Below are positions 3,457-40,017 of a stretch of DNA of 64,000 bases, in pieces. A program made the translations under genes and the position numbers. Position 1 is the first letter of the stretch, and each line of letters opens with the position of its first letter. This DNA comes from Elusimicrobia bacterium CG_4_9_14_3_um_filter_62_55. Its GTDB lineage: Bacteria > Elusimicrobiota > Elusimicrobia > UBA1565. The stretch lies in assembly GCA_002790095.1 (NCBI GenBank), contig PFUL01000184.1, positions 2,740-66,739 on the forward strand, in the 5' to 3' direction. The notes beneath the pieces were generated by a model, which was not told where the DNA came from, ran no database searches, and saw only the letters and a program-made list of their open reading frames with translations.

Positions 3457-3936
3457 TTGTCGAAGAAAAAAGCCGATCCGGATAAAATTCTGATCGCCTC
3501 CAACAAGAAGGCGCGGTTCCACTACGAAATTTTCGACGTGGTCGAAGCCGGGCTGAGCCTCAAAGGCCCCGAGGTCAAATCCTTGCGGGACAGCAAGGCC
3601 CGCCTGGAAGGGGCCTTCGCGCGCCTGGAAGGGTCCCGGGTGTTTTTGCATCACCTCTACATCGCCCCCTACTCCCACAACACGGGCGAGGAAATTGACC
3701 CCGAGCGGACCCGCCCCCTTCTGCTCCACCGCAAGGAAATCGAGAAAATTCGCAAAGGCGTCGACCAAAAAGGCCTGACGGTGGTCGCTCTCGAACTCTA
3801 CTTCCGCAAGGGATGGGCGAAGGTCGCCGTCGCGCTGGCCAAGGGGAAAAGGGGCGCGGACAAGAGAGATACGCTGAAGCGAAAAGCGCAATCCCGCGAA
3901 CTCGAACGGTCGTTCAAGGGCAAATTCCGGGTTTAA
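3457..3936 (+). CDS. smpB: SsrA-binding protein
   Basis: ARFHYEI..EAGLSLKGPEVKSLR and a basic C-terminal tail are characteristic of SmpB. Uses a TTG start. Confidence 0.88.
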   Translation: MSKKKADPDKILIASNKKARFHYEIFDVVEAGLSLKGPEVKSLRDSKARLEGAFARLEGSRVFLHHLYIAPYSHNTGEEIDPERTRPLLLHRKEIEKIRKGVDQKGLTVVALELYFRKGWAKVAVALAKGKRGADKRDTLKRKAQSRELERSFKGKFRV

Positions 3937-3938
3937 CG

Positions 3939-5570
3939 ATGACGGGTCCCGCCCTGCCGCTGGCGCTGTTCGCGCTCGCCATCGGCGGGCTGAGAAATCC
4001 GTGGGCCCTGGGCGCCGCGTCCGTCTTTCTTTGGGGCGCCGTCGCCGCCGCCCCCGAAGGACTGCGGCGGCTCCCCGGCGCGCGGCTTTGGATCGCCTGG
4101 CTGCTCTGGTCGGCTGTGAGCGCCGCGCTTTCCGCCGAACCGCTGCGAGGACTGGCCGCGTTATCGTTGCGGGCCTCGGCGTTCGGTCTCTTGACGCTCG
4201 CGGCCTCCGCCGAAGATGGGCCGACGCAATGGGTCCGTGCCGTCCTCGGGGCGGCGCTCGCAATCGAAGCCGCGTCTTGGCTGGTCGCGGTTCCGGGATT
4301 TGATTTCGTCGGTGTTCTCTATCCCTACTACAACTACACGGGCGCGGTCGCGTCCGTCGCGGCGGTACTCGGCTTCGGACTTCTTCTGGGCCGCTCCAAA
4401 AAGGACCGCTTATTCGGAGGCGCAGTCTGCGCCATCTCCGTTGTATGGATACTCTGCGCCTCCAGCCGCGGGAGCGCCTTGGCCTCCGTCGTGGGCATCG
4501 GGGTTGTACTTCTGCGCGCGCGGCGCTTTCGCGTGCTGGCCGCCTTCGCCGCGGCGTTTGCGCTCACCCTCGCGCTGCTGTTCACCGCGGGTTCCCCGCT
4601 GCTCAAACTCGACCGCCCTTCCTCTAATCTTCGGCCGCGCCTTTGGTCGGCCGCCCTCTCCGTCGCGAAGGACGCCCCCTTCTTCGGACAGGGGCCGGGG
4701 CAATTCGACCGCGGGTTCTTAAAACACAATTTCCCGGCCGCGCCGGAGGAAGCTCCGACGCGCTACGGGATCGTCTCCAAACATGCCCACTCGGAACCGC
4801 TGCAGGAAGCCGCGGAAACCGGATTCCCCGGGGCGCTGCTGCTCTTGGCCGCGCTGCTGACGACGATGACCGCCGCATGGCGACGGTCGGATCTCCTCGA
4901 TCCCCGGGCGGCCGCGTGCGCGGCGCTGCTCGCCCATGCCTGTTTCGACAATCTATTTGCGCTTCCCGCGCTTGAGTGGTTGTTCTTCGCGATGCTCGGC
5001 TCGACGGCCTCCGGCCCACCGAGGGACGCGCCGAGATTCCCCGCCGCGGCCTTGCCTTTCGCAGGCGCCGCGCTCGCCGCGTTCGCCTGGTGGCCCGCCT
5101 GGACCGTTGCCTCCGCCCGCGCGGACGGAAGCGAGGACGCTTTGCTCCGCGCCCTCGCGACGGCCCCGCGCGATCCTGATTTGTGGGGAGAGCTCGCCTT
5201 CCGGAGAGCCCAGGAGGGACGTCCGAGAGAGGCGCTCGACGCCCTAAGGGCCGCAGAATCCCTGCATCCCACTCACGCGCTGTATCCGCTGATGGGCGCC
5301 GGCATCTTCCAAGCGGGACGGCGCTGGAACGCGGCGCTCTTGTTGAGCGAACGCGTCCTCGCGCTGGAACCGCGAGCGGCCCAAGCGAAACTGATGCGCT
5401 GCGAAGCGCTGTTGGAGATGGGGCGTCGGGGTGAAGCCGCAGAGCAACTGAAGCGCTTTTACGCGGAAACCGACCGGAGCGGGAATTTCAAGGCGATGCG
5501 GGAATACCCGCGCTTCATCCTCGGCTACGATGAAGACCTGCTGACGCGGCTCGAGGCGCGGCTTCGCTAG
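3939..5570 (+). CDS. O-antigen ligase family (Wzy_C) polytopic membrane protein with C-terminal TPR repeats
   Basis: Start taken at MTGPALPLALFAL immediately after the smpB stop. Wzy_C signature KHAHSEPLQEAAETGFPG is present, followed by TPR-like helices. The track ORF start (3813) overlaps smpB. Confidence 0.7.
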   Translation: MTGPALPLALFALAIGGLRNPWALGAASVFLWGAVAAAPEGLRRLPGARLWIAWLLWSAVSAALSAEPLRGLAALSLRASAFGLLTLAASAEDGPTQWVRAVLGAALAIEAASWLVAVPGFDFVGVLYPYYNYTGAVASVAAVLGFGLLLGRSKKDRLFGGAVCAISVVWILCASSRGSALASVVGIGVVLLRARRFRVLAAFAAAFALTLALLFTAGSPLLKLDRPSSNLRPRLWSAALSVAKDAPFFGQGPGQFDRGFLKHNFPAAPEEAPTRYGIVSKHAHSEPLQEAAETGFPGALLLLAALLTTMTAAWRRSDLLDPRAAACAALLAHACFDNLFALPALEWLFFAMLGSTASGPPRDAPRFPAAALPFAGAALAAFAWWPAWTVASARADGSEDALLRALATAPRDPDLWGELAFRRAQEGRPREALDALRAAESLHPTHALYPLMGAGIFQAGRRWNAALLLSERVLALEPRAAQAKLMRCEALLEMGRRGEAAEQLKRFYAETDRSGNFKAMREYPRFILGYDEDLLTRLEARLR

Positions 5571-6355: not shown

Positions 6356-7147
6356 TCACCCTCGACGACGAACGCTCCGAGAGCCCGCAAGCGTCGTGCC
6401 GGTCGCGGCCAGGCGAATACCCTCTAGCGTCAAGTTTGCCAAATAGACGGCGGGGCGACGGAGAGCCCCGCAAAACAGACGCCCCAACCCGCCCGTAACG
6501 AGCACAGCGGGAGGTTTCTTCCCCCCCATTTCGCGGATTGTCTCTTCCAGGACCCGGTCGATCATCCCCAAATACCCGAAGTACAGCCCGGCCTGGAGGC
6601 ACTCGACGGTGTTCTTTCCGATGACGCGGCGCATGGGGCGAATCGGAATCTCAGGCAGCTTTTCCGCCTTGAGCGAGAGCGCCCGGGATGCGACCCCCGG
6701 ACCGGGGAGAATCGCGCCCCCGAGATAATCCCCCCGGCCGTCTACGCAATCGAAGGTCGTCGCGGTTCCAAAATCGACGACGATCGCCGGTCCGCGAGCG
6801 GCGCGATGCGCCGCCAGGGCGTTGGCCAGACGGTCCGCCCCCACCGAGTTCGGCGTGTCGACGAGAAGCCGGATTCCCAAGCGCGAGCGCGGGGTCAATT
6901 CAAACGGCGCCTGTCCGCACGCCGCGCGCGCGGCTTTGCCAAGGCGCGCGTCCAGTGATGGGACGACGCTCGCGATGGCGATCGCGTCGATCTTCCCGAA
7001 CGACGCGATCCGACGCGAGAGCGCGGAAGGCGCGGGAGCGGGAACGGATTCCATCCGGGAACGCCGCGCGAGACGCTCCCCGCGATAGAGACCGAACGTG
7101 AGATTGGTGTTGCCTGCGTCGATGACGAGCAAGGTTTGTCCGCTCAT
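6356..7147 (-). CDS. coaX: Type III pantothenate kinase
   Basis: LLVIDAGNTNLTFGL and VVDFGTATTFD motifs of the Bvg accessory factor/CoaX family. Confidence 0.85.
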   Translation of the reverse strand: MSGQTLLVIDAGNTNLTFGLYRGERLARRSRMESVPAPAPSALSRRIASFGKIDAIAIASVVPSLDARLGKAARAACGQAPFELTPRSRLGIRLLVDTPNSVGADRLANALAAHRAARGPAIVVDFGTATTFDCVDGRGDYLGGAILPGPGVASRALSLKAEKLPEIPIRPMRRVIGKNTVECLQAGLYFGYLGMIDRVLEETIREMGGKKPPAVLVTGGLGRLFCGALRRPAVYLANLTLEGIRLAATGTTLAGSRSVRRRG

Positions 7148-7207: not shown

Positions 7208-10026
<2,819 letters not shown>

Positions 10027-10046
<20 letters not shown>

Positions 10047-11580
10047 GCTTCTTCCGCGGAATATCCGCCTTTTTGTTCCGCAGGAACGCGAAGGCCCGGA
10101 TCAGTTTCGGCCGGGTCTTGCGGGCTTCGATCACCTCGTCGATGTAGCCGCGCTGAGCGGCGAGGTAGGGATTGGCGAATTGCTTCGTATACTCATCGAC
10201 GAGTTCCCGGCGGCGCTTCTCGTGATCGGCGGCCTTTTTGATCTCCTTCGCAAAAAGGATGTTGACCGCGCCCTCAGGCCCCATCACGGCGATTTCCGCG
10301 CAAGGCCAGGCGTAGTTGAAGTCTCCCCGCACGTGCTTGGAGCTCATCACGTCGTACGCGCCGCCGTACGCCTTGCGCAGAATCACGGTCACCTTAGGGA
10401 CCGTGGCCTCGCAGTAGGCGTAGAGCAGCTTCGCTCCGCGGCGGATGATTCCTCGATGTTCCTGCTCCCTACCGGGCCAATAGCCGGGCACGTCCACCAA
10501 GGTCAGCAGTGGAACGCTGAACGCGTCGCAAAAGCGAACGAAGCGGGCCGCTTTCTCCGAGGCCTGGATGTCCAAGGCCCCCGAGAGCACCTTGGAATTA
10601 TTGGCGACCACTCCGACGGTGCGCCCCTCGAGACGGATAAAGCCGCAGAGGATGTTGCGCGCCCAGTCCTGATGGACTTCGAGGAAGTTGGCTCCGTCGC
10701 CGATCTCGCGGATCACCTCGAGGGTGTCGAAGGCATGGCGCGCGGCCCTGCGTGAAATGCGGTCGAGCGTCTCCGATTCCCGCTTGGGATCGTCGGAATT
10801 CGCCTTCACTCTTGGGAGTTCCCGGTAATTCTGCGGCAGATAATCAAGCAATTCCCGGATCATGCGGAAACACTGCTGCTCCGAATTCGCGACAAAATGA
10901 CAGACTCCGGACTTTGAGGCGTGCGCGTCGGATCCGCCGAGTTCGTCGAAATCGCACTCTTCCCCGGTGGCCGCCCGAACGACTTCGGGACCGGTGATGA
11001 ACATGTGGCTCTCGCCGCGGACCATGAACACGAAATCGGTCATCGCGGGTGAATAAACCGCGCCTCCGGCGCACGGTCCCAGAATCGCCGAAATCTGGGG
11101 GATGCGTCCGGACGACTGGACGTTTCGCCAAAAGATCTCCGCGTAGCCTCCGAGCGCGTCGACGCCTTCCTGAATGCGTGCGCCGCCGGAGTCGCTGAGC
11201 CCGATCACCGGAACTCCCGTCTTGTCGGCGAGATCCATGATCTTGCAGATCTTCTCCGCGTGAGCGAGCCCGAGGGATCCCCCGAGGACGGTGAAATCCT
11301 GGCTGTACACGGCGACGCTCCGCCCCCGAATCTTGCCGAGTCCGGTCACGACGCCGTCCGCCGGGATATCCCTGTCTGCGAGTCCGAACTCCCGAGCCCG
11401 CGTCTTTCGGAGCAGATCGATTTCCTCGAAGCTGTCCTCGTCAAGCAGGTGCTCGATGCGCTGACGCGCGGAAAACTTGCCTGTCTTAGCGCGCGCTTTG
11501 ACGCGCTCGTCGCCGCCTCCGGCGCGGGCCTTTTCCTGCAGCTTTCGAAGCGCTTCGGCCTTGTCGCTGATGATCTTCAT
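10027..11580 (-). CDS. Acyl-CoA carboxylase carboxyltransferase subunit (propionyl-CoA carboxylase beta / methylmalonyl-CoA carboxyltransferase family)
   Basis: Start taken at MKIISDKAEALRKLQEK. Full-length similarity pattern to PccB/AccD5 (e.g. GGARIQEGVDALGGYAEIF). Confidence 0.85.
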
Positions 11581-11990
11581 TAAGGAGCTCCTACCAGTTC
11601 TAAAAGCGCGCCGCCGCAATCCTTGGGGTGTAAAAAGCAAACGTGATGTCCCCGGGCGCCGGGACGCGGGGCTTCTTGAAGCGGAGGCCGCCCGGAGGAC
11701 TTCAACCGCGCCATCTCGCGGCCGACGGAGTCCGCGTGAAACGCGAGGTGATGGAGACCCGGACCGCGCTTACGTAGAAATGAGGCGATCGCCCCCTCCT
11801 CGCCGGTCGGTTCGAGCAGTTCGATCTCGGTCGCGCCCTCCGCTTCACCCGGATGCCCGAGAAAGGCCACGCGGACCTTCTGCGTCCTCACTTCTTCGCG
11901 ATGGGTGAGCACCAGTCCGGCGGTTTCCTCATACAGGCGGATCGCGTCATCGAGATTTTCCACCGCGATGCCGATGTGGTCGATCCTCAC
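11580..11990 (-). CDS. mce: Methylmalonyl-CoA epimerase (VOC/glyoxalase fold)
   Basis: [17 protein letters not shown] motifs, typical MCE size, and pathway context. Confidence 0.8.
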   Translation of the reverse strand: MRIDHIGIAVENLDDAIRLYEETAGLVLTHREEVRTQKVRVAFLGHPGEAEGATEIELLEPTGEEGAIASFLRKRGPGLHHLAFHADSVGREMARLKSSGRPPLQEAPRPGARGHHVCFLHPKDCGGALLELVGAP

Positions 11991-13021
11991 GCACCGCCTC
12001 TAATGAGCTTGCGGCCTAAAGTCAACGGGTCGGATTTCTTATCCAAAAGCAGATCGATGTGCCGCTCCGTCACGCGGTCCAGCGTGCTGCGTGTGATCAG
12101 CCGGGAAATCAACAGGGAGAGTTCTTTGCGCAATTGCCGCTTGCGTCTTTCAAGCAGTTTTCCGGTTTCCTCGAGATGCCGGCCGTGGTCCACGATGGAG
12201 CCAAGAAGTTCCTCGACGCCTTTCTTCGTGCGGGCGGAGACGGCGTGAACCGGAACGACCCAGGCCCCTTCTTCCGCGTCCGGACCGAGGCTCATCGCGT
12301 CGCGGATGTTCGCGACGGCCTTGTCCACTTCCTCGAGATCGGCCTTGTTGACGGCGAAGACGTCGGCGATCTCCATCGTCCCCGCTTTCATCGCCTGAAA
12401 CTCGTCGCCTTGATACGGCGCCGTGACGCACACGACCGTATCGACGACGTCGACGATCTCCACCTCGTCCTGCCCGGTTCCGACCGTTTCGATGAAAATC
12501 CAGTCGAACCCCCTCTTTCCCTTCGCGGCTTCATAGGCCTGAAGCACGTGAATCGCGGCGAAAATAGTTTCATTGAGTCCGCCGACCATCCCGCGGGTCG
12601 CCAGGCTGCGGAAGAATACGCCCTCGTCGAGCGCGTGTTCCTGAACGCGAATGCGGTCTCCCAGGAAGGCGCCTCCCGTGTAGGCGCTGCTCGGGTCCAC
12701 CGCGAGCACCGCCACCGTTTCCGCGTCCTTTCGGACGCGGGCGACGAGAGCGTTTACAAGACTGGATTTCCCGCTGCCGGGGGATCCGCACAACCCTATG
12801 GTCCGGGAACCGCCGTGGTACGGGAAGAATGCCCGCGTCACCGCTTCGTATCCCGAATACTCGTCGGTCACCATCGTGAGCGCCCGCGAGACGGCCCCCT
12901 GATCGCCGCGGCGGACCCGCTCAAGCAGTTCGGGTGCCGCCGCCCGACGGCTTCTGGAGGCGGCACTTCCTCGCGATAGCGCTCGGTCGGCGGTCGCCGC
13001 GCGGCGCTTAGCGGCGCGCAT
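11987..13021 (-). CDS. meaB: Methylmalonyl-CoA mutase-associated GTPase (ArgK/MeaB)
   Basis: P-loop [14 protein letters not shown], and the ArgK family layout. Confidence 0.85.
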
Positions 13022-13484
13022 GGCGTCCCTTCTTCTTCGCGGCGGCCTTCTTCGCCGTCTTTTTCGGGGACGACTTCCACGAGCCCGTCTCCAGCGCGTC
13101 CTTCAAAAACTCTGCGATCCGCACCGTCGGAGTTCCCGGCCCGAAGACCGCCGCGACCCCGCTCTTCCTAAGGGCGGCCTCGTCTTCTTCGGGAATAATT
13201 CCCCCGCCGAAAACCATCACGTCGTCGAGCCCCGTTTTGCGCAAAAGATCGACGACTTTCGGAAACAAAGTCATGTGCGCTCCGGAAAGGAGGGACAGTC
13301 CGACGGCGTCCACGTCCTCCTGCAGCGCCGTTCGGGCGATCATTTCCGGAGTTTGCCGAATCCCGGTGTAGATCACTTCGAAGCCCGCGTCGCGCAGGGA
13401 GCGAACGATGACCTTCGCCCCGCGGTCGTGCCCGTCGAGACCGGGCTTGGCGATAAGAATTCTATATGCGTTTTTATTGGCCAT
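13008..13484 (-). CDS. Methylmalonyl-CoA mutase B12-binding subunit (small subunit)
   Basis: DGHDRG (DxHxxG) cobalamin-binding motif. 158 aa with an AGGAG RBS. Confidence 0.85.
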
Positions 13485-13493
13485 CGGAATCTC

Positions 13494-14606
13494 CTACCAA
13501 ATGCCTTCCTGCGTCTCGAGCAGCTCCACGATCGCGTCGGCGATGTCCGGGTCGAACCGGGTTCCTTTTCCGGCCCGGATTTCCCGAACCGCCGTCTCGA
13601 TGCGCTGCTCCGGCGGAACCCCGCCGTTCATGCGCAGATCTTCTATCTCTTCGATGACGCGGAGCACGCGCGCGCCCTCCGGAATTTCCTCGCCTTTCAA
13701 TTTTCCCGGGTAGCCCGTCCCGTCGTAGTTCTCGTGATGGTGACGGATGATCGGAAGAGCGCCCTCGAGCATGTTGATGCCCTCGAGCATTTTCACGGAC
13801 AGAAGCGTGTGCTGTTCCTCCACCGGAGACGTGATCCCGACCAATCCGAGGATGCGCGGATTCTTAAAGCCGACGTAGCCGATGTCGTGCAGCAAGCCCG
13901 CGTAGTACGTCATGCGGTACAAATAATCGTCTCCGCCCATCGCCCTTACCACGGCGCAAGCCAGGCGGGCGACCCGGTTGGGGTGGTCGAAGTTGCGCGG
14001 CTTGGAAACCTCGATCATCCCGCCCAGAAGCTCCAGAACGTGTGAGAAGAAATTCTTCTGATCCTGGATGATGCGCGTGTTCGTGATGGCGACCGAAGCG
14101 AGATTCGCCAGGCTCGAGAGCAATCCGATGTGTTCGTTGGCATAGGTGCCTGTCCGTTTATTGAGGACCTCGCAAACCCCGACCAATTCCCCGCGGAAAA
14201 ACATCGGCACCGCGATCAGCGAGCGAGTGATGAACCCCGATTTCTTGTCGAACTGCCCGGCGAACCGCGGGTCCTTCGACGCGTCGGGGACGATCTCGGG
14301 ACGGCCTTCTTTCGCCACCCATCCGGCGATGCCCTGTCCTATGGGCAAGGTCATTTTTTTAAGCTTCGCCCCGGCCTCGCCTCCCGCGACCTTGAAGTAG
14401 AGGCTCTTCCGGTCGTCGGTTACGAGCATGATCGCGCTGGCTTCCGAATCGAGAAGACGCTCGGCGGCCGTGCCGATTTTCTCCAGCAGGAAATCCAGGT
14501 CGGGTGTGGAGTTGAGAGAACCGGCGATTGAGAAGAGTTCGAGGGCGAGCGACAAATCGCCGACGCCTCCCTTTGCGGAAATGGAATCGGGCGCGGGAGA
14601 GGTCAT
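13494..14606 (-). CDS. GAF sensor domain + HD-GYP domain phosphodiesterase (predicted c-di-GMP hydrolase)
   Basis: An N-terminal GAF-like region is followed by HDIGY...HHENYDGTGYPGKL (HD and GYP motifs intact). The start codon overlaps the upstream stop (tcat at 14603-14606). Confidence 0.8.
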   Translation of the reverse strand: MTSPAPDSISAKGGVGDLSLALELFSIAGSLNSTPDLDFLLEKIGTAAERLLDSEASAIMLVTDDRKSLYFKVAGGEAGAKLKKMTLPIGQGIAGWVAKEGRPEIVPDASKDPRFAGQFDKKSGFITRSLIAVPMFFRGELVGVCEVLNKRTGTYANEHIGLLSSLANLASVAITNTRIIQDQKNFFSHVLELLGGMIEVSKPRNFDHPNRVARLACAVVRAMGGDDYLYRMTYYAGLLHDIGYVGFKNPRILGLVGITSPVEEQHTLLSVKMLEGINMLEGALPIIRHHHENYDGTGYPGKLKGEEIPEGARVLRVIEEIEDLRMNGGVPPEQRIETAVREIRAGKGTRFDPDIADAIVELLETQEGIW

Positions 14607-16417
14607 TGCGGCTTATCCTCCTCTTTTTCCTGGCCGCCGATCACTTCGCGGACCGTCGTCCAGCCCAGTTTCACCTTCTCGAGACCGTCCTGCATGATGG
14701 TTCGAAAATTCCCCTGTCCGACGGCGATCGGGGTCAGAGTCGAGACCGACATGTCGGTCAGGGAAACCTTGCGCAGCTCGTCGCCGAGAATCAGCAGTTC
14801 GTGAAATCCGATACGACCCTTGAAGCCGGAATCCTTGCACTCGTCGCAGCCCTTCCCCTTCATGAATTTCGTCCCAGGTGGAACATCGACCTTATGCTCT
14901 TCAAAGAGGGCGAGTTCCTCAGGTCTCGGATCGTGAGGTTCGGCGCAATTCTTGCAGTTGCGGCGGCCGAGACGCTGGGCCAGGATGGCCTTGGTCGTGG
15001 AAGCGACCATGTAGGCCGGTACGCCCATTTCAGCGACGCGGCTTAAAGTCGAAAGCGAGTCGTTCGTGTGAATGGTCGAGAAGACGAGGTGACCCGTCAT
15101 CGCCGCTTCCATCGCGATATGCGCCGTTTCCCCGTCGCGAATTTCGCCGACCATGATAACGTCCGGATCGAGACGCAAAAACGAGCGGAGCGCCGAGGCG
15201 AAGTCGAATTTCTTCCCCTCGCCGAGCTTCAGGTCCGGGTTGACGGGGACCTGCACGATTCCGTCGAGGTTGTATTCGACCGGGTTTTCCGCGGTGAGAA
15301 TCTTGATGTCCGGGCGGTTTACATAATTAAGGCAGGAGTAGAGCGTGGTCGATTTTCCGGAACCCGTCGGACCGCAGACGACGATGAGACCGAAGTTCTT
15401 TTTCCCGCCGATGCCCTCGAGCAGTCCCAGGAGGTTCCTCTTCGTATCCTCCATGAAACCCATCACGTTGATGTCGACCTGAATCGATCGGCGGTCGAGA
15501 ATACGAAGCACCGCGGACTCTCCGTAGACGGTCGGCACGATCTCGACGCGGAACTCAATGGGGTTGCCGCCCGCGAGAATCTGGATGCGCCCCGACTGAG
15601 GGATGCGGCGCTCGGTCAGGTTCATCGAGTTCGTCAAAATCTTCAACTTCGCCATGATGGCCTGGCGGTAGGCCCACGGCACCTTGAAAGGTCCGGTCTT
15701 CAAAATACCGTCCTGGCGAAAGCGCAGCAGCAGGGCATTGTTCTTTCCGGAAGGATCGGCGAACGGTTCGATATGAATGTCGGAGGTCTTCGACTGAATC
15801 GCCGAGAGGAAAATCGCGTTGACCCACTTCTCGACTTCCGGGGCCGAGGGGTCGACGTCCGAAATATCCGACGCGGGCGCGTCTTTCTTGACGTCGCCGT
15901 CGAGATCGGGAGGACCGTCCTCGCCTCCCTTCTGCACGTCCTCGATGAGAGCCCCGAGCGCGGCGCCTTCGCCTCGGTTGTACGCCTGATTGAGCGCGTC
16001 GATCACGTCCCACGGCATGGCCAGATAGGCCTGGACGTCGAGGCCGGTGCGCAGATGGATATCTTCGGAAACGAAAAAGTCCTTCGGGTCGGCCATCGCG
16101 ACGAAGAGGATGGATTCCTCCTTCGCGAACGGAATCGCCTGATGCCGCCGCGCGACGGCTTCCGGAATGATCTGAACGATCTCTTCGTCGGGCTCCATCT
16201 GGGAAAGGTCGACGGCCTTCACCTGCCACTCCTCGGACAAAACCTTGAGGAGCTTCGGCTTCTTCATCAGCTTGTCTTCGACGATGACCTGCTGAATCGG
16301 CTTGTCTTCCTTTTTCGCCTTCTCCGCCGCGGCTTCGAGAATCTTCTCGTCGAGGAGTTTTCGCTCCTTGAGAATCTCGGCGACGGTCTTGCGTCGGACG
16401 AGGCCTTTAAGAGCCAT
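14603..16417 (-). CDS. GspE/PilB-family secretion/pilus assembly ATPase with N-terminal T2SSE_N (GspE_N) domain
   Basis: Start taken at MALKGLVRRK with a GGAGAA RBS. Walker A GPTGSGKSTTLYS and a C-terminal tetracysteine (CKNC...CDEC) are present. The track ORF start 16672 is an upstream over-extension. Confidence 0.85.
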   Translation of the reverse strand: MALKGLVRRKTVAEILKERKLLDEKILEAAAEKAKKEDKPIQQVIVEDKLMKKPKLLKVLSEEWQVKAVDLSQMEPDEEIVQIIPEAVARRHQAIPFAKEESILFVAMADPKDFFVSEDIHLRTGLDVQAYLAMPWDVIDALNQAYNRGEGAALGALIEDVQKGGEDGPPDLDGDVKKDAPASDISDVDPSAPEVEKWVNAIFLSAIQSKTSDIHIEPFADPSGKNNALLLRFRQDGILKTGPFKVPWAYRQAIMAKLKILTNSMNLTERRIPQSGRIQILAGGNPIEFRVEIVPTVYGESAVLRILDRRSIQVDINVMGFMEDTKRNLLGLLEGIGGKKNFGLIVVCGPTGSGKSTTLYSCLNYVNRPDIKILTAENPVEYNLDGIVQVPVNPDLKLGEGKKFDFASALRSFLRLDPDVIMVGEIRDGETAHIAMEAAMTGHLVFSTIHTNDSLSTLSRVAEMGVPAYMVASTTKAILAQRLGRRNCKNCAEPHDPRPEELALFEEHKVDVPPGTKFMKGKGCDECKDSGFKGRIGFHELLILGDELRKVSLTDMSVSTLTPIAVGQGNFRTIMQDGLEKVKLGWTTVREVIGGQEKEEDKPQ

Positions 16418-18038
16418 GGTATTCTCCGAAGACGCCGCGCAGGGCGTCGCAGATTTCTCCGGTGGTCGCGCCGCGCTTGACCGCGTCGCCGACCAGCGGA
16501 AACAGATTCTCCTTCGAACCGGCCGCCTTCGCGAGCCGCCCGACCGCCTCCTCCGCGGCTGCGCCGTCTCGCTTGCGCCGGAAGGACGCGAGACGTTTCT
16601 TCTGCTCGCGCTCAAGCCCCGGGGAAACCTTGAGCGTCTCCCGCTCCCCGGCCCTTTCGACCGCGCCGTCAATTTCGTAGGAGTTCACGCCGACGATTTT
16701 TCGGCGACCCGCCTCGATGTCCTTCTGGTAGCGGTAGGCGCTCTGTTGAATCTCGTTCTGAGCCCAGCCTTTCGCGATCGCGGGAATCATCCCGCCCATT
16801 TCTCGGACCTTTTCGAGCGTCTTCCAGGCCCGGGTCTCGATCTCGTCGGTCAGCGCCTCGATCGCATACGAGCCCGCGACCGGGTCCACCGTGTCCGGCA
16901 CGCCGGTCTCATGCGCCAGAATCTGCTGCGTGCGCAGCGCGAGTTCCGCGCTTTCCTCGGTCGGAAGCGCGAGCGCCTCGTCGAACGCGTTCGTGTGGAG
17001 GCTCTGCGTCCCTCCGAGAACCGCCGCCATCGCCTGCAGGGACACGCGCATGACGTTGTTGAGGGGTTGTCGGCTGGTCAAGGTCGAGCCGCAGGTCTGG
17101 GTATGGAAGCGGAGTTTTCCGGAGCGCGGGTCCTTCGCGCCGTAGCGTTCGGTGACGATCCTATTCCACAGTCGGCGGGCGGCCCGGAACTTCGCGATCT
17201 CTTCGAGGAAATGGTTGTGGCAGCCGAAAAAGAACGCAAGCCTCGGCGCGAAATCGTCGATCGAGAGTCCGCGCGCCAGGGCCGCGTCGATGTAGGCCTC
17301 GGCGTTGCCCAAAGTGAACGCGACTTCCTGAACCGCGTCGGAACCGGCTTCGCGGATGTGATAGCCCGAGATGGAAATCGGATTCCATTTCGGATAGTGC
17401 CGGACCGAGTATTCAATCACGTCGGTCGCCAGGCGCATGCCGTGCTCGACCGGAAAGATGTAGGTGCCGCGCGCCAGATATTCCTTCAAAATGTCGTTTT
17501 GGACCGTGCCGCGCAGCATCGCGGGCTTCGCGCCCTGCTCTTCGGCCACCGCGGCGTACAGCGCAAGCAGCACCGGCGCGGTCGCGTTGATCGTCATCGA
17601 GGTGGAAACGTCCCCCAGCGGAATCCCGGAGAACAGGGTGCGCATGTCGTCGATCGAGCCGATGTGAACCCCGACGCGGCCCACCTCGCCGCTCGCAGCC
17701 TTGGCGTCCGCGTCGTGCCCGATCTGAGTCGGCAGGTCGAACGCCGTCGAAAGGCCGGTCTGCCCCTGTTCGAGCAGGAAGCGAAAGCGCTTGTTGGTCT
17801 CGGACGCGGTCCCGAAGCCCGCGTATTGGCGCATGGTCCAAAGCCGGGAGCGGTACATGTCGGAGTGCACCCCCCGCGTATAAGGGCCCTCTCCGGCGTT
17901 TCCGATCGCGGCGGCGGCGGTCTTTTCCCGCGTATCGCGTCCGGCGGCGCCTTCGGCGCCCGGTCCGTAAAATCGTTCCAAGGTGATTCCCGACGGAGTC
18001 GTGTACTCCGCGGAGGCTTCGTCGACCGTGTCGCTCAT
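16407..18038 (-). CDS. Methylmalonyl-CoA mutase large (catalytic, N-terminal TIM barrel) subunit
   Basis: Start taken at MSDTVDEASAEY with a GGAG RBS. RTMRQYAGFGTASETN... is characteristic of MCM. The track ORF start (18251) is over-extended. Confidence 0.85.
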   Translation of the reverse strand: MSDTVDEASAEYTTPSGITLERFYGPGAEGAAGRDTREKTAAAAIGNAGEGPYTRGVHSDMYRSRLWTMRQYAGFGTASETNKRFRFLLEQGQTGLSTAFDLPTQIGHDADAKAASGEVGRVGVHIGSIDDMRTLFSGIPLGDVSTSMTINATAPVLLALYAAVAEEQGAKPAMLRGTVQNDILKEYLARGTYIFPVEHGMRLATDVIEYSVRHYPKWNPISISGYHIREAGSDAVQEVAFTLGNAEAYIDAALARGLSIDDFAPRLAFFFGCHNHFLEEIAKFRAARRLWNRIVTERYGAKDPRSGKLRFHTQTCGSTLTSRQPLNNVMRVSLQAMAAVLGGTQSLHTNAFDEALALPTEESAELALRTQQILAHETGVPDTVDPVAGSYAIEALTDEIETRAWKTLEKVREMGGMIPAIAKGWAQNEIQQSAYRYQKDIEAGRRKIVGVNSYEIDGAVERAGERETLKVSPGLEREQKKRLASFRRKRDGAAAEEAVGRLAKAAGSKENLFPLVGDAVKRGATTGEICDALRGVFGEYHGS

Positions 18039-18373
18039 CGAATCTCCAATAGGTCCCCTTCGGACACGCTGCCGTCCAGCGCGCCTGCGGGCAGTTCCAG
18101 CACGCTGTGCGCCGTGAACACCCACGGAGACAAGCGCCAAGGCTTCAAATCCTCGATCACGCGCCGTACGCGCAAGTTTCGGTCGAGGAACAGGACGTCG
18201 ATCGGAAAGCGCATGAAGAAGGTATGGATCATCGGGCACGGGACGATCCAAAGCCCTTCCTCGGCCTCCATCCGGTCACGGCCCAACAGCCCCTGAGCCC
18301 GCGACGCGGCCGTATCCGCCAGCGCCACTTCCCGCGCCACAATCCGGTCCCGCGTACGGTTAAAGGCTATCAA
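18035..18373 (-). CDS. DUF192-like small protein
   Basis: 112 aa with TTG start; FLDRNLRVRRV..ELPAG resembles DUF192. Its stop overlaps the MCM large-subunit start. Confidence 0.45.
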   Translation of the reverse strand: MIAFNRTRDRIVAREVALADTAASRAQGLLGRDRMEAEEGLWIVPCPMIHTFFMRFPIDVLFLDRNLRVRRVIEDLKPWRLSPWVFTAHSVLELPAGALDGSVSEGDLLEIR

Positions 18374-18424: not shown

Positions 18425-19229
18425 CTAATCGGAGGGGGTCTCGGGCGGAGAGAGCAGTTCCTCAACGAGAAAACGCGCCTTCAGCGGAATTACACCCCGC
18501 GCAAGGTAGGCTTCGATTGCCGCGAAAACCTGCCTCGGATCGGTGAGGCCAAGATAACCGATGAGAAATTCGACGTCGGCGCGAAAATCGCGTCAACGTT
18601 CTTCGTCGCGTCGAGGCTTATCCCCTCTCTAAGAAATTCCCAAGGACGAACAGATTGCGTTTGCGAAAGATCGCCGGAGATTCCACCAGGGCAGAAGCCT
18701 TCAGGCTCTCCGCTTCCGATAAGAACCACGGGTCTTCGAGTCGACCAATCCCGCGACACCATTCCGGTGCCGACTCTCCGAGCAGGAATTCCACGCTCGA
18801 GGCGTACAACGCCCGCACTCGCCGAGGGCAGTCCGGGTCCGGCGCGAGCGCGCATAGGCCCGGATCACGCAGACGGCGATACGCGTCGACGAATTGAAAC
18901 AGCCACAGCGTCCACGTTTCCTCCCCCTCCAGCTTGATCCGCAGCGAAGTCTCGGCCACCGAATCCGGACCGGCGAGCCAATGACGGGCAAGGAGCCTTT
19001 CGGCACCGGCGGACGAGAAGCCAAGCGCCGCAACGGTCGCCGTGATGGTAGACCATCGGGGGTCCGTCGCGCCCGACTCCAGTCGTTGGAGGGCACCGAA
19101 GGAGAGACCTGCGGCAATGGGGAATATTGGCTCGCCACATAACGGCCACAGAGCGTTGACGACGAACCTGTTTTATAACGTCTTTCCCCATTTGCCATCC
19201 CGAAGAAATCGGATTTTTTGAGAAGCCAT
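18425..19229 (-). pseudogene. Disrupted gene of unknown function: one reading frame broken by an in-frame TAA and two frameshifts
   Basis: Minus-strand translation starts at ATG 19227-19229 (MASQKIRFLRDGKWGKTL*), continues open for ~190 codons (...LWLFQFVDAYRRLRDPG...NFLERG*), then shifts frame twice (ISLDATKNVDAIFA | DVEFLIGYLGLTDPRQVFAAIEAYLARGVIPLKARFLVEELL...SD*). The track shows only fragments 18618..18959 and 18490..18855. Confidence 0.45.
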
Positions 19230-19248
19230 TTAAATTTCAGCACTTTTA

Positions 19249-19266
19249 GCATATCGCGCGATATGC
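19249..19266. promoter_or_regulatory. Perfect 18-bp palindrome GCATATCGCGCGATATGC in an AT-rich divergent promoter region
   Basis: Read directly; the reverse complement is identical. It sits ~20 bp upstream of the 19227-19229 ATG on the minus strand and ~115 bp upstream of the HNH gene on the plus strand. Confidence 0.6.
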
Positions 19267-19382
19267 AAAAAGTCCTTACATTTTAAGCGCTTCATGAAAA
19301 ATCCGATTTGGATCTCCCGCGGCAGGGAACAATTTCGGTGGCCGACGCGTACGAAGCATCAAAAGTACAGAGAGGGTCAGAC

Positions 19383-20531
19383 ATGGACGATGATTTCGAT
19401 TGCGCTTCACTCAGCGATGCTCAACTTATTGCTTCACTCAAGGCCTGCGTGGAGGACGAGCGCCGCCAGACAGTTAAGATCCTAAAGCGGCTTAACGAAG
19501 TGGAACGACGCGACTTGTTTTCCAAGAAGCGATATTCCTCGATGTTTGCGTTTTGCATCGGCGAGCTCGGCTACTCGGAAGGCGCTGCCGCGCGGCGCAT
19601 TCATGCCGCTAGAGCCGCGAAGAACTTTCCGCTCATTTATCGGCGCCTTTCCGGCGGCAGCATCAGCCTGACTGCCGTTTCACTGCTGGCCCCGCATCTG
19701 GACGATGAAAACCATCGCGGGCTGTTGGACCGATGCGCCGGGAAGAGTTCTCGCGAGATCGACCGAATCCTCTCGGAATTCTCCCCGCGTCCGGCTCCCC
19801 GCGACTCGATCCGCCATCTCGGCACGGCCCCGTCGCCATCCGAAATTCCGGGAGACGACGCCAGCGGCGCGCTGCCCTTCTCAGGCGTTTCGGATTCCGC
19901 CCTCACGGAGCCCCAACCGATGTCGTCCGGCGGCGAAGCAGGGCAAAAAGACGATGCCTCTTCCGCTCCGCCCGGCGACCCGGGACCGAAGGAGGGTGAG
20001 CGCGTCTCGGTCACGTTCTCTGCCGACCAGAGATTCGTCGACCGGCTGGAAAGGGCCCGGCAATTGCTGCGTCATAAGTATCCGGCCGCGCGATTTGAGC
20101 AGGTGCTTGCCGACGCGCTCGAAGCGCTTTTGGACCGCGTCGACCCGTTCCGCCGGGAGGCGAGGCGGGCATCCAAATCCAGACTCGCTTCGGAGCAGTC
20201 TTCGGACGGAAGTCAGAACCCGGCCCGGGCGGGCGTCGTTTCGGGAGAATCGTCAGGCCGGACGATACCGGCGCGCCTGCGCGACGCCGTTTGGATACGC
20301 GACGAAGGATGCTGCGCGTACATCGACGACGAAGGGCGCCGCTGCGAATCCCGGGACTTTTTGGAGATCGACCATGTGGTCCCGCACGCCCTCGGAGGGA
20401 GTTCCGATGACGCCGGCAACCTGCGCCTGCTTTGCCGCGCGCACAACCGACGCGAAGCGGCGCGCATTTTCGGAGAGGAGTTTATGCGGGCCGCCTCCGA
20501 CCGGGCGGCGCGGAACCGGATTAGCGGATAA
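19383..20531 (+). CDS. HNH endonuclease domain protein (DUF222 N-terminal domain + HNH; REP13E12-like)
   Basis: C-terminal DHVVPHALGGSSDDAGNLRLLCRAHNRRE HNH motif. Start taken at MDDDFDCASL; the track start 19308 lies in the AT-rich promoter. Confidence 0.75.
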   Translation: MDDDFDCASLSDAQLIASLKACVEDERRQTVKILKRLNEVERRDLFSKKRYSSMFAFCIGELGYSEGAAARRIHAARAAKNFPLIYRRLSGGSISLTAVSLLAPHLDDENHRGLLDRCAGKSSREIDRILSEFSPRPAPRDSIRHLGTAPSPSEIPGDDASGALPFSGVSDSALTEPQPMSSGGEAGQKDDASSAPPGDPGPKEGERVSVTFSADQRFVDRLERARQLLRHKYPAARFEQVLADALEALLDRVDPFRREARRASKSRLASEQSSDGSQNPARAGVVSGESSGRTIPARLRDAVWIRDEGCCAYIDDEGRRCESRDFLEIDHVVPHALGGSSDDAGNLRLLCRAHNRREAARIFGEEFMRAASDRAARNRISG

Positions 20532-22176
20532 GCGCCAAGCGCGCCTTCTGCATCCCGGCATCGGTTTTGACGAGCAGAATGTACACCCCGCTGGCGACGT
20601 CGTTGCCGGCGTCGTTTTTGCCGTCCCAACTGGTGTTCGAGCCCAATTGCCGGACGAATTCCCCGGCCATCGTGTAGATGCGGATATCGGCGTTCTTGCC
20701 CTGCAGGCCCGTCGGGATCGTGATCGTCGCGGCGCCGTGCGTGGAAGGACGGAAAGGGTTCGGGAACGCGATCACCTTGGCGTCTCCGTCGAAGCCGGAG
20801 AGGGTGCCTTCGGCTGTCAATTTCATGGCGCGAAAGGCATTAAGAAGACCCGCTCCCGATGATTCGCCCATCACCCTAGTCGAGGGGGTCAACGACGCAA
20901 CACCGATGCCGACGGCCGACGCCCTGAGGTTGCTTTTAATCGTAGCCCAAGTAATTGCCGGATCTTTCGCGATCATGAGAGCGGCGACTCCGGCTCCGAT
21001 GGGCGATGAAAACGAAGTACCGGTGGCCCCGCCGGTATAACTTCCCGAAAGATCGGTGGTAACAATCGCAACACCCGGTGCCACGAAACCGTTGGCAGCG
21101 AGTTCCGGGCCGCGTGAAGAAAAAGAAGCTATGTTGTTGTTTGCATCCGTCGCGCCGACCGGGATGGCGTTCGGACAATTTCCCGGCTTATTTATCGTCG
21201 TGGGGTTTCCGTTTCCGGCCGACACGAACACCGGAATGTCTGCGGCGACGGCGTTCCCGAGGGCCGTGTTCACGGGGTCACCCGCCGCACACGTTCCTCC
21301 TCCGCCGATGCTCAGATTAACGACCATCCGGTTAACCGTCGGACTGCTCTTGTTGACAGTAATAATCGTCGTCAAGGCATTAATAATCGCCTGATCGTCG
21401 GTAAAACAGGTATTCCCACCGGCTTTATCGCCGCAATCCGTAGTGCAGTCCGTCGTGTTGAAGACACGGAATGACAGAAGACGGGCTCCCCAAGATACTC
21501 CCGCCACACCGGTTCCGTTGTTGGAAGCCGCTGCCGCAACCCCTGCAACCCGCGTTCCGTGATTGCATGCGATAAGCGGGGTTTCGGGGACACAGACCGC
21601 CCCGGTTCCAGCAGTATCATCAGAACCAGGATCGCAATAATAACTCGTCGACAGGAACTTATCCTTCAATTCCGGATGCGTCACTTCGATGCCGGCATCA
21701 ACAACCGCTATCGTTACGGTGCTGGAGGAACCGACTTCATACTCCCACGCGGCCGGCATATTGATGGAAGCCAGGTGATATTGTGACGCATAGTTCGGGT
21801 CGTTGGGCACCTTCGTCGGACGGTACGCTGTGTTATGCGTCACAGCCTGAACACCGTCCACGCCGCGCGCGAAGATCAACCCATTGCTAACGGACATCCC
21901 TGGCGGAAGTCGCGCCAAATCCCAATGGATGCTCGGAAACTCCTGCAGCAAAGACATTCCTCGTGCTGAAAACGCCTGATTCTTCGCGGCAGAGGAAACC
22001 CCGTTTGAAAACTGCACGAAGACCTCGCCGGAAGCCACTTGAATCTCTTCCGTACCCGAGCCGCCGGTCGATAACGGAACGGAACGACGCAAAGTCTCCA
22101 CCTGAATCGCGCCCGCCGGCACAGCCAACCCGGCGGCGAACAGCACCGTCAAAATCGATCGCTTCATGCTCAGCAT
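20521..22176 (-). CDS. Secreted subtilisin-like serine protease (S8) with T9SS-type C-terminal sorting domain (FlgD-Ig-like CTD)
   Basis: Start taken at MLSMKRSILTVLFAAGLAVPAGA (signal peptide) with AAGGAG RBS. Catalytic D (VVDAGIE), H (NHGTRVAG) and S (GTSFSSP) are present. The C-terminus IRIYTMAGEFVRQL..WDGKNDAGNDVASGVYILLV matches the CTD pattern. The track ORF start 23100 is an over-extension. Confidence 0.85.
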   Translation of the reverse strand: MLSMKRSILTVLFAAGLAVPAGAIQVETLRRSVPLSTGGSGTEEIQVASGEVFVQFSNGVSSAAKNQAFSARGMSLLQEFPSIHWDLARLPPGMSVSNGLIFARGVDGVQAVTHNTAYRPTKVPNDPNYASQYHLASINMPAAWEYEVGSSSTVTIAVVDAGIEVTHPELKDKFLSTSYYCDPGSDDTAGTGAVCVPETPLIACNHGTRVAGVAAAASNNGTGVAGVSWGARLLSFRVFNTTDCTTDCGDKAGGNTCFTDDQAIINALTTIITVNKSSPTVNRMVVNLSIGGGGTCAAGDPVNTALGNAVAADIPVFVSAGNGNPTTINKPGNCPNAIPVGATDANNNIASFSSRGPELAANGFVAPGVAIVTTDLSGSYTGGATGTSFSSPIGAGVAALMIAKDPAITWATIKSNLRASAVGIGVASLTPSTRVMGESSGAGLLNAFRAMKLTAEGTLSGFDGDAKVIAFPNPFRPSTHGAATITIPTGLQGKNADIRIYTMAGEFVRQLGSNTSWDGKNDAGNDVASGVYILLVKTDAGMQKARLALIR

Positions 22177-39427: not shown

Positions 39428-40017
39428 TCTGTCCCCAATTTCCGGCGACTGATTCCCTTTTCTTGAAAAATCCATAGTTTTGCTGAATTTGAGTCCATAC
39501 GGCCCAATCCGAATTGGGCCGTTCGCTTCTGTCGCGAGAGAATGATCCGGCTTAAGATATTAAGGTAGCTATGATCCGATCGCTTCTCGCCCTGATCCTC
39601 TTCGTCGGCCCCGCGAATGCGGCGCCGGTCGCGTCGCGCGTCGCGTCCGCCGCACCCGGGCATCTCCCCGTCCTGGCTCCCTCGCTGGGTGCGGCCGGAG
39701 CCGCGACTCCCTCGCTTCTTTCCTCCCCTTCACTCGCCGAGGGCGGTCTCCCGAGCCTCGTCGCCCCGGTTTTTTCGGCGGAGTCAGCCCCGGCCGCCGC
39801 CTCGCCGGCAGCTCCGGCGCAGGAGCTCCGCCCGAAAACCCTTTCCGCAGCACACTCGGGAATTCTACCGGCGCGAGCCGTTCGCCCCTTCGCTCTGTTC
39901 TCGAAAGGAACCCCGGCGGCGAACCCCGCCGACCGAACCTCCCCTAGCGCGAAGGAAACCGCGGCGGCGATCGCCCAAAAGGCCGATCGCGCCCCGCCTA
40001 CCGAGTTGGAAAAGCGG

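Follow-up and report, generated by a model that had tools for sequence, protein, structure and literature searches.

PilB of Xanthomonas carries no MshEN motif for the binding of cyclic di-GMP (c-di-GMP), and its ND0/ND1 region docks PilZ and FimX, a degenerate EAL receptor (PMC8389850). The MshEN motif is carried by Myxococcus xanthus and Geobacter PilB; in the GSPII-A domain of Thermus PilF even small deviations from it are reported to abolish c-di-GMP binding. Described here is a relative of these motors from a 64,000-nucleotide stretch of Elusimicrobia bacterium CG_4_9_14_3_um_filter_62_55 (contig PFUL01000184.1; hereafter the window), where a gene for a PilB-like ATPase and a gene for a GAF-HD-GYP protein lie together between the genes for the large and small subunits of methylmalonyl-CoA mutase (MCM). 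The reading that we favor, with about even confidence, is that the PilB-like motor takes in signals through the GAF-HD-GYP protein as its input subunit and that the two constitute an autonomous two-gene module, co-expressed with MCM but not dependent on it.

The GAF-HD-GYP architecture is known from PmGH of Persephonella marina (4mcw; PMC4159591), in which the D183/K225 pair is essential: D183A and K225A abolish activity, and each of these substitutions, like D308A, behaves as a metal-ligand knock-out does (PMC4159591). In HD-GYP proteins of the PmGH type, E185 is the third-metal ligand of a trinuclear subfamily capable of full hydrolysis to GMP. Noncatalytic or interaction-type members include Bd1817 and RpfG, whose GYP-dependent binding of GGDEF proteins controls pilus motility (PMC4159591). 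The PilB-type ATPase, the MshEN fold, the GAF-HD-GYP protein, and the split MCM with its MeaB are all of known kinds. Four features are new here and were not found in the searchable literature: an obligate pairing of PilB and GAF-HD-GYP genes, the substitution of the MshEN motif throughout the family, the series of HD-GYP orthologs running from intact to dead in one slot, and the phylum-wide placement of the pair between MCM genes with a fixed dual-coding overlap; literature on Elusimicrobia combined with methylmalonyl-CoA or PilB yielded no description of the arrangement.

The ATPase N-terminus and the GAF-HD-GYP protein

The ATPase (604 aa, minus strand, 14603..16417; PF00437, E 2.5e-104) is collinear over its full length with type IVa PilB (E values of 4e-113 for Geobacter PilB, 5tsg, and 1e-108 for Myxococcus PilB) through ND0/ND1, N2, the ATPase core, and the zinc motif. 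Its N-terminus comprises an ND0, or MshEN_N-like, helical subdomain (residues 1-64, 16226..16417), delimited by alignments to PilB and MshE, and an ND1, or MshEN_C, subdomain (residues 65-150, 15968..16225), which covers positions 2-88 of the 90 in the PF05157 MshEN profile (E 1.5e-18); both lie on the minus strand. By phmmer, residues 9-120 match MshE (5htl) at E 2e-10, and the N-terminus matches the N-domain of Geobacter PilB at E 2.5e-17. The order of a four-helix ND0 region, ND1, N2, and ATPase is shared with MshE-type ATPases such as MshE of V. cholerae.

Two forms of the MshEN motif were coded as regular expressions: a strict form, RLGxx(L/V/I)(L/V/I)xxG(L/V/I)(L/V/I)xxxxLxxxLxxQ in two tandem 24-residue copies, and the relaxed form used in genome surveys (Wang et al. 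2016), [RKPN]hGxxhhxx[GAS]hhxxxxhxxxhxx[QNKRYWST]. Neither was matched by any of the 83 Elusimicrobiota family ATPases. Among the controls, which were sequence fragments, Geobacter PilB, Myxococcus PilB, and domain C of Thermus PilF matched, and the nonbinding PilF domain A failed. When the window protein was aligned to Geobacter and Myxococcus PilB, the positions of the motif Arg, Gly, and Gln were occupied by T/A/A in the first repeat (T-V-A...K...A) and by P/Q/E in the second (P-I-Q...K...E). A preliminary description of this DNA had suggested that the ATPase is an MshEN c-di-GMP receptor and had left the comparison of residues 1-150 with the motif open; the fold is present, but both 24-residue repeats are degenerate, here and in all 83 members. 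The family has its own signature instead, consisting of MAVKGL.RRKT (with E.L further on), K[PST].QQ, and LLK.LSEEW, and the strong conservation of this signature argues that ND0 is under selection for something else. Judged by these residues, direct sensing of c-di-GMP by the ATPase in the manner of MshE is unlikely, though some new mode of binding is conceivable.

The GAF-HD-GYP protein (370 aa, minus strand, 13494..14606; Pfam GAF, HD_5, and HD) has its GAF domain at approximately 14085-14501 and its HD-GYP domain at approximately 13542-14021, with HDIGY at 13875-13889 and HHENYDGTGYP at 13707-13739. The best solved relative is PmGH, which aligns end to end (residues 31-362, E 1.5e-38); PmGH numbering was transferred through this alignment, and the offset was verified on the eight metal ligands. 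In common with PmGH the window protein retains H189, H221, D222, H250, H276, H277, and the Tyr of GYP, and D305 is replaced by Glu, which leaves the seven shared metal-ligand positions filled; 23 of 69 orthologs fall short of this. Unlike PmGH, it carries D183K, E185R, K225Y, D305E, and D308E, and the base-contacting residues R314 and K317 are Gly and Pro. Position 225 is Tyr in 59 of the 69 family members, and the third-metal position 185 is occupied by G, R, N, or A across the family. With Arg at this position, the metal site of the window protein would be of the binuclear type at best, and some phosphodiesterase activity may be retained. The earlier statement that the HD and GYP motifs are intact is right as to their presence; it overlooks D183K, K225Y, R314G, and K317P, as well as the degenerate orthologs.

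These 23 orthologs form a monophyletic clade with H189Y, D222K, H250L, H277K, and D305V, and all of them are still encoded between the ATPase and B12-subunit genes. Of the eight metal ligands they lack four or five (four in loci L062 and L074, which keep Glu at 305), and from these substitutions the clade must be catalytically dead. Little or no variation is seen in the GAF domain and in the GYP loop (conserved in at least 66 of the 69 sequences, with the 23-member clade included). The conserved, pocket-like GAF stretch, D..D.RF....D...GF.T, is shared with GAF domains that bind cyclic mononucleotides (cNMPs), and the nearest solved GAF domains are the cAMP/cGMP-binding domains of CyaB2, PDE2, PDE5, and PDE10, and 5w10. 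In the GYP loop, the residues conserved to this degree are E278, D281, G282, G284, P286, and I294. Mean identity is 0.63 for GAF versus 0.54 for HD-GYP. Because the GAF domain and GYP loop are kept while catalytic residues vary, the conserved role would be to sense and probably to bind, without hydrolysis being obligatory. Persistence of the GYP loop where catalytic residues are gone fits a binding or interaction role of the kind known from Bd1817 and RpfG. Bd1817 itself lacks the GYP that the Elusimicrobiota proteins retain; RpfG is an active enzyme with a REC input, and the window holds no GGDEF partner.

The motor elements of the ATPase were located on the minus strand: Walker A (GPTGSGKS) at 15350-15373, the Asp box (ENPVE, residues 377-381) at 15275-15289, an atypical Walker B with the catalytic Glu (DPDVIMVGEIRD) at 15134-15169, and the His box (TGHLVFSTIHT) at 15065-15097. 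The last Glu of the Asp box, the counterpart of the Mg-binding E357 of Geobacter PilB, is retained. The zinc tetracysteine of the PilB/GspE clade, of the form CxxC...CxxC (CKNC...CDEC, residues 488-527), is also present, and a simple regular expression finds such a tetracysteine in 71 of the 83 family sequences. From this set of elements the protein is predicted to be an active motor. PilB scored above GspE in both the PDB and the NCBIfam comparisons; it is the best-scoring family, and the NCBIfam GspE profile gave 441.6 bits against a cut-off of 630.25. There are also small insertions relative to PilB.

A Pfam scan of all substantial open reading frames (ORFs) of the window, with one candidate per locus, detected no pilC, pilM, pilN, pilO, pilQ, or pilT gene and no GGDEF, EAL, or PilZ gene, in agreement with the earlier observation that pilC, pilM, pilT, and pilQ partners are missing nearby. 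One N_methyl pilin-like ORF is present (43745-44326), and one relative encodes a prepilin peptidase (PilD) and a pilin 8-9 kb downstream. Paralogous copies of the ATPase in the phylum adjoin a Ser/Thr kinase and a cyclase-like ORF, CTP synthase, or REC-GGDEF with a two-component system; a canonical pil operon was sought beside them and was not present among the Pfam-scanned flanking genes of the loci examined. The paralogous locus types examined are likewise without adjoining pil genes, and this makes the earlier argument, that an ATPase without such partners may not be a conventional motor, a weak one. Type IV/II pilins and PilD have been reported from Elusimicrobiota genomes (PMC8809381).

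The gene pair inside and outside the MCM block

A scan of GTDB species representatives with the ATPase gave 80 related loci (labeled with L-numbers, such as L016), onto which the window proteins were mapped by tblastn; start codons in these loci were picked by proximity to the start in the window. The relatives are contigs of metagenome-assembled genomes (MAGs). All loci with a stated phylum belong to Elusimicrobiota, a few being labeled only "bacterium"; the nearest relatives of the ATPase are all from Elusimicrobiota MAGs, and an identical protein occurs on many metagenomic contigs. The commonest gene order, seen in most of the 80 loci at ATPase identities from 89% down to approximately 60%, is HAD, S8 peptidase, DUF192, MCM large subunit, ATPase, HD-GYP, MCM B12 subunit, MeaB, epimerase, carboxyltransferase, (Wzy_C), malate/lactate dehydrogenase (MDH), and type III pantothenate kinase (PanK). 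Look-ups that started from the MCM large subunit recovered the same order in all three relatives obtained (64-67% identity; contigs of approximately 180-390 kb).

In the window the MCM large-subunit gene and the ATPase gene share an 11-nt dual-coding overlap (ATGGCTCTTAA, 16407..16417, minus strand) that takes in the TAA stop of MCM and the ATG of the ATPase; a Shine-Dalgarno-like GGAGA lies just 5' of the ATG. In 45 of 49 related loci the overlap measures exactly 11 nt, and the conserved junction (TTCGGAGAATACCATGGCGGTTAAAGG) encodes the C-terminus of MCM, the GGAGA ribosome-binding site, and the N-terminus of the ATPase together. The retention of gene order across loci and of the 11-nt overlap places the arrangement far beyond chance and argues for long-maintained translational coupling. 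The slot that the pair occupies, flanked by the large- and small-subunit genes of MCM, is most likely an old gene-order feature of Elusimicrobiota.

The synteny check proposed in the preliminary description has two outcomes: the MCM-embedded order is conserved, with the pair between the MCM genes in most of the 80 loci, but the pair also occurs without MCM at the locus and as copies elsewhere. The HD-GYP gene follows the ATPase gene in approximately 70 of the 80 loci, in three different genomic contexts. A backbone of DUF192, ATPase, HD-GYP, and carboxyltransferase, from which the MCM large subunit, the B12 subunit, MeaB, and the epimerase are missing, is found in six loci (L016, L017, L028, L052, L056, and L061) as well as in several truncated contigs; here the genes flanking the pair were lost jointly on its two sides, and the pair was retained. 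Loci of this kind occupy at least three separate branches of the ATPase tree, which was built by neighbor joining and midpoint rooted, without support values. A second copy of the pair is present in the same genome in three cases (L014 with L067, L018 with L070, and L016 with L072). This second copy (L067, L069, L070, and L072; approximately 9400-14200 of the locus) consistently adjoins a Ser/Thr protein kinase, and in the ATPase tree it falls within the MCM-context clade, which indicates that the ATPase and HD-GYP genes were duplicated together. In L069 the ATPase is preceded by a 187-aa class III nucleotidyl cyclase-like ORF (9448-10011) that overlaps the ATPase start (10001) by 11 nt.

A deep paralogous clade (L080, L082, and L085) has a REC-GGDEF gene immediately upstream of the pair, and this adjacency is the best evidence that the pair belongs to c-di-GMP signaling; the nucleotide second-messenger setting proposed earlier is borne out to this extent. 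The cluster in these loci (approximately 9000-14800 in L085) consists of an sCache-HAMP histidine kinase and an OmpR-type regulator, in divergent orientation, followed by REC-GGDEF, the PilB-like ATPase, GAF-HD-GYP, a 155-179-aa protein without a Pfam match, a second GAF protein, and DUF2914, and it looks like a complete c-di-GMP signaling and motor cassette. Up to two or three ATPase paralogues occur per genome, and in a few deep relatives a lone ATPase gene adjoins CTP synthase. Collectively, the MCM-less loci, the paired duplication, and the GGDEF-linked clade identify the ATPase and HD-GYP pair as the functional unit, rather than an insertion into MCM. An apparent exception in locus architecture was rejected: a 1102-aa ORF in L081 (10001-13300; CP096137.1, a complete Elusimicrobiota genome) resembled a fusion of the ATPase with downstream genes, but its tblastn pieces (10001-11356 and 11358-11801) reveal a frameshift just past the His box, due either to misassembly or to a pseudogene in that genome.

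A proposed motor module and its alternatives

In the arrangement proposed here, a hexameric motor of the PilB type would serve a type IV filament and form one module with its cognate signaling partner. The GAF domain would read a small ligand, plausibly a cyclic mononucleotide, and the atypical HD-GYP domain would bind a cyclic dinucleotide, most likely c-di-GMP, with slow hydrolysis in some lineages. The partner would control the motor by protein-protein contact, probably through ND0/ND1, a region that may have been repurposed by loss of the nucleotide-binding motif and retention of a family-specific conserved surface. The 11-nt dual-coding overlap would hold the pair in its slot through translational coupling and lead to co-expression with the succinate/propionate operon, and the module would be biochemically independent of MCM. 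Since the block also contains unrelated housekeeping genes (EF-P, HAD, S8 peptidase, and PanK) and the pair survives the loss of MCM from the locus, the embedding most likely reflects co-expression only.

The nearest parallel is the FimX-PilZ-PilB system of Xanthomonas citri and Pseudomonas, where PilB ND0 is likewise without the MshEN c-di-GMP motif and PilB is steered through ND0/ND1 by a degenerate phosphodiesterase-type receptor; by analogy, the same is proposed here. Unlike FimX (REC-PAS-GGDEF-EAL), the Elusimicrobiota partner is a GAF and HD-GYP protein, translationally coupled to the pilB-like gene, and the window HD-GYP may still be partly active. A further difference is that no PilZ adaptor gene was seen in the window, and the interaction between the partners is here a proposal. 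If the pair works in this way, it would represent an HD-GYP-based counterpart to the EAL-based circuit, and the MshEN fold would prove repurposable from nucleotide receptor to docking platform across an entire, largely uncultured bacterial phylum. The occurrence of both intact and dead HD-GYP orthologs in one slot offers a natural experiment on the evolution of a "trigger enzyme" versus a "pure receptor". The phylum-wide 11-nt junction is an exceptionally clear example of translational coupling maintained between genes of unrelated function, and it bears on the persistence of super-operons. For annotation, the labels "MshEN domain" and "HD-GYP" on this Elusimicrobiota pair should not be taken to imply c-di-GMP binding or hydrolysis.

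A joint reading would go further and describe a new type of filament motor control. Here a phylum-specific ND0 surface (KGL.RRKT / K.xQQ / LSEEW) would dock the obligate GAF-HD-GYP partner, which would be a cNMP-gated cyclic-dinucleotide sensor or trigger enzyme, purely noncatalytic in one clade. The module would be translationally slaved to the MCM large subunit, so that filament activity (adhesion, DNA uptake, or motility) would be proportional to the capacity for methylmalonyl-CoA fermentation flux. Such a system would wire central energy metabolism directly to surface behavior; the combination of swapped ND0 surface, obligate partner docking, and MCM-slaved expression is one that we regard as doubtful.

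Several observations weigh against the interpretation of the pair as an autonomous motor module. The Asp box reads ENPVE where Geobacter and Myxococcus PilB have EDPVE, an Asp-to-Asn change found in 82 of the 83 family members, and the ATPase scores 518.3 bits against TIGR02538, the PilB equivalog, under its cut-off of 675.65. With no pilC, pilM, pilQ, or pilT in the window or the scanned paralogue flanks, the filament output follows from homology only, and the physical contact between the ATPase and GAF-HD-GYP is presumed from indirect evidence. Some deep relatives (L068, L071, L073, and L076) have an ATPase without an HD-GYP neighbor. The number of independent MCM losses is approximate, given the unsupported midpoint-rooted tree, and the absence of MCM was scored at the locus, which does not prove its absence from the genome. 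The strict conservation of the MCM/ATPase overlap could also point to a functional tie to MCM.

That last point is the core of an explanation in which the pair regulates, or is regulated by, MCM and propionate fermentation, for example with the GAF domain sensing a pathway metabolite or cobamide, or with pilus activity set stoichiometrically by MCM expression. An exact 11-nt overlap maintained in 45 of 49 loci across approximately 40% ATPase divergence, the presence of the pair after every MCM ortholog examined from the MCM side (three of three), and the same arrangement on the deep branches L066 and L053 speak for such a tie. That the pair persists in several lineages whose otherwise unchanged backbone has neither half of MCM is harder to reconcile with it, as are the paralogous copies in unrelated contexts, and the housekeeping genes in the block are typical of a conserved super-operon. 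The nearest solved GAF domains bind cNMPs and are not metabolite sensors, and we know of no biochemical link between a PilB-type ATPase and MCM; a true functional tie is accordingly rated as quite improbable. The proposal of the preliminary description, a bona fide MshEN receptor coupled to an active phosphodiesterase as a sensing-plus-turnover pair, draws on the homology of the MshEN fold (PF05157; 5htl, E 2e-10), the six metal ligands and GYP Tyr that are kept, the conservative nature of D305E, the full-length similarity to the active PmGH, and the GGDEF adjacency in the deep clade. On the receptor side, not one of the 83 ATPases matches even the relaxed motif, the Arg, Gly, and Gln positions are changed in both repeats while the controls match, and lesser deviations are reported to be enough to abolish binding in GSPII-A of Thermus PilF. 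On the enzymatic side, the window protein has D183K and K225Y where D183A and K225A abolish PmGH activity, together with R314G and K317P, and the 23 orthologs with four or five of eight metal ligands lost keep their gene in place. With the motif absent from the ATPase and the D183/K225 pair absent from the HD-GYP protein, this proposal is not upheld and appears improbable.

A different possibility is that the ATPase does not drive a pilus and, as a diverged PilB/GspE paralogue, powers another process, for instance a type II secretion-like or nonfilament one, with the HD-GYP-like protein as its adaptor. Scores under the equivalog cut-offs for both PilB and GspE agree with this view, as do the family-wide Asp-box substitution and the small insertions; the lack of pilC/M/N/O/Q/T in the 64 kb and in the Pfam-scanned paralogue flanks, and the two or three paralogues in some genomes, point the same way. 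The full-length collinearity with PilB of type IVa pili, the precedence of PilB over GspE in the PDB and NCBIfam comparisons, the pilin-like ORF in the window, the prepilin peptidase and pilin 8-9 kb downstream in a relative, and the pilins and PilD reported for the phylum (PMC8809381) speak for a filament motor, and a nonpilus role is given a low probability.

Operon layout and other features of the window

The minus-strand run that contains the pair extends from 18373 to 7208, from DUF192 to MDH, and is given as eleven genes with spacings of 9 nt or less, most of them overlaps. The order is DUF192, MCM large subunit, PilB-like ATPase, GAF-HD-GYP, MCM B12 subunit, MeaB, epimerase, carboxyltransferase, Wzy_C-TPR, and MDH, and PanK lies downstream of MDH after a 60-nt spacer. 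Distances at the first four junctions (DUF192/MCM, MCM/ATPase, ATPase/HD-GYP, and HD-GYP/B12 subunit) are -4, -11, -4, and +9 nt. The coordinates, domains, and 11-nt and ATGA overlaps described earlier were confirmed by direct reading of the sequence, and the gene order was right; the run begins one gene earlier than had been thought, at DUF192 (COG1430; minus strand, 18035..18373; PF02643, E 6e-20). The start of DUF192 is probably the GTG at 18340 (it is called as 101 aa in L001), and the gene is kept directly upstream in type A loci and in type B loci, those without MCM. Its stop overlaps the start of the MCM large-subunit gene by 4 nt (ATGA), and the GAF-HD-GYP start overlaps the ATPase stop in the same way.

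Consensus scans for internal promoters and terminators returned one promoter-like and 20 terminator-like sites, not above a shuffled control, and none was convincing on the minus strand between 13000 and 18400. The tight, conserved packing and the absence of a terminator signal above the shuffled control argue for the co-transcription and translational coupling with the MCM genes that had been suggested. A riboswitch upstream of or inside the operon was considered and rejected, since an Rfam scan of the whole window at gathering thresholds returned one tRNA only.

All MCM-related genes lie on the minus strand. The large, catalytic subunit (543 aa, 16407..18038) matches PF01642 over its full length (E 4.9e-210) and TIGR00641 at 720 bits (cut-off 303.8). 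The small, B12-binding subunit (158 aa, 13008..13484; PF02310, E 6.6e-28; TIGR00640, 178.8 bits versus 57.45) contains the DxHxxG motif as DGHDRG and a Lys/Ala-rich tail, and its start lies 9 nt past the HD-GYP stop, behind a GGAG. Its gene overlaps by 14 nt that of MeaB, the G-protein chaperone of MCM (11987..13021; PF03308, E 7.8e-75; TIGR00750, 263.5 bits versus 240.75), which is followed by the methylmalonyl-CoA epimerase (11580..11990; TIGR03081, 134.4 bits versus 114.95; Glyoxalase_4). Because all four pass curated NCBIfam thresholds, the flanking genes make up a true split MCM system. Two residues that we take to be discriminating, the Tyr of RQYAGF and the Arg of YLARGTY, fit MCM rather than isobutyryl-CoA mutase.

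A separation of the MCM subunit genes is by itself nothing unusual. Metallosphaera sedula has its two subunits encoded by the unlinked Msed_0638 and Msed_2055, going by a title cited in PMC6759758, and the earlier generalization that the two MCM halves normally adjoin each other or are fused goes too far. As in that species, so far as the cited title conveys it, the catalytic barrel and B12-binding domain are separate polypeptides of nonadjacent genes; unlike it, the Elusimicrobiota genes share one operon and are separated phylum-wide by the same two unrelated genes.

Downstream on the same strand are a carboxyltransferase of the methylmalonyl-CoA decarboxylase alpha or transcarboxylase 12S type (10027..11580; PF01039, E 1e-179), which scores 723.6 bits against the TIGR01117 mmdA subfamily, under the cut-off of 998.8; an O-antigen ligase-like Wzy_C-TPR membrane protein (8142..10046; PF04932, E 1e-18, plus TPR), present at the block in some relatives only; MDH (7208..8140; Ldh_1_N and Ldh_1_C), the last gene of the tight run, with 76-92% identity in most relatives and 67-69% in the deepest loci; and PanK (6356..7147; PF03309, E 5e-56), the conserved end of the syntenic block. 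A 60-bp tandem repeat at 8152-8316 (2.8 copies, 96% matches) lies at the 3' end of the Wzy_C-TPR ORF directly upstream of the MDH start, where it encodes a repeated 20-aa tail, and each unit contains a GC-rich hairpin (GCGGGGCCCAAGCCCCGT). A REP-like nature of this hairpin was rejected, as it is confined to the array and occurs nowhere else in the window. Wzy_C-TPR membrane proteins are encoded twice in or beside the block (3813-5570 and 8142-10046). Wzy_C enzymes include pilin O-oligosaccharyltransferases, and a role of these proteins in pilin glycosylation is conceivable.

Upstream of the run, the region between the S8 peptidase and DUF192 (18701-20531) contains a 183-aa ORF on the minus strand without a Pfam match and a 407-aa HNH-endonuclease-like ORF on the plus strand. 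The S8 gene directly precedes DUF192 in relatives such as L004, L086, and L088, and the region looks like a lineage-specific insertion that interrupts the conserved block in its upstream part. The S8 peptidase itself (20521-22176) ends in a type A sorting domain of the type IX secretion system (TIGR04183, 27.1 bits versus a cut-off of 23), a hint that this Elusimicrobiota genome may encode a substrate of type IX secretion. Farther away, two ORFs with IS200-like Y1 transposase domains, both weak Pfam hits (38437-39354, 305 aa; 41511-42317, 268 aa), flank a glycogen/starch synthase gene (39571-41514).

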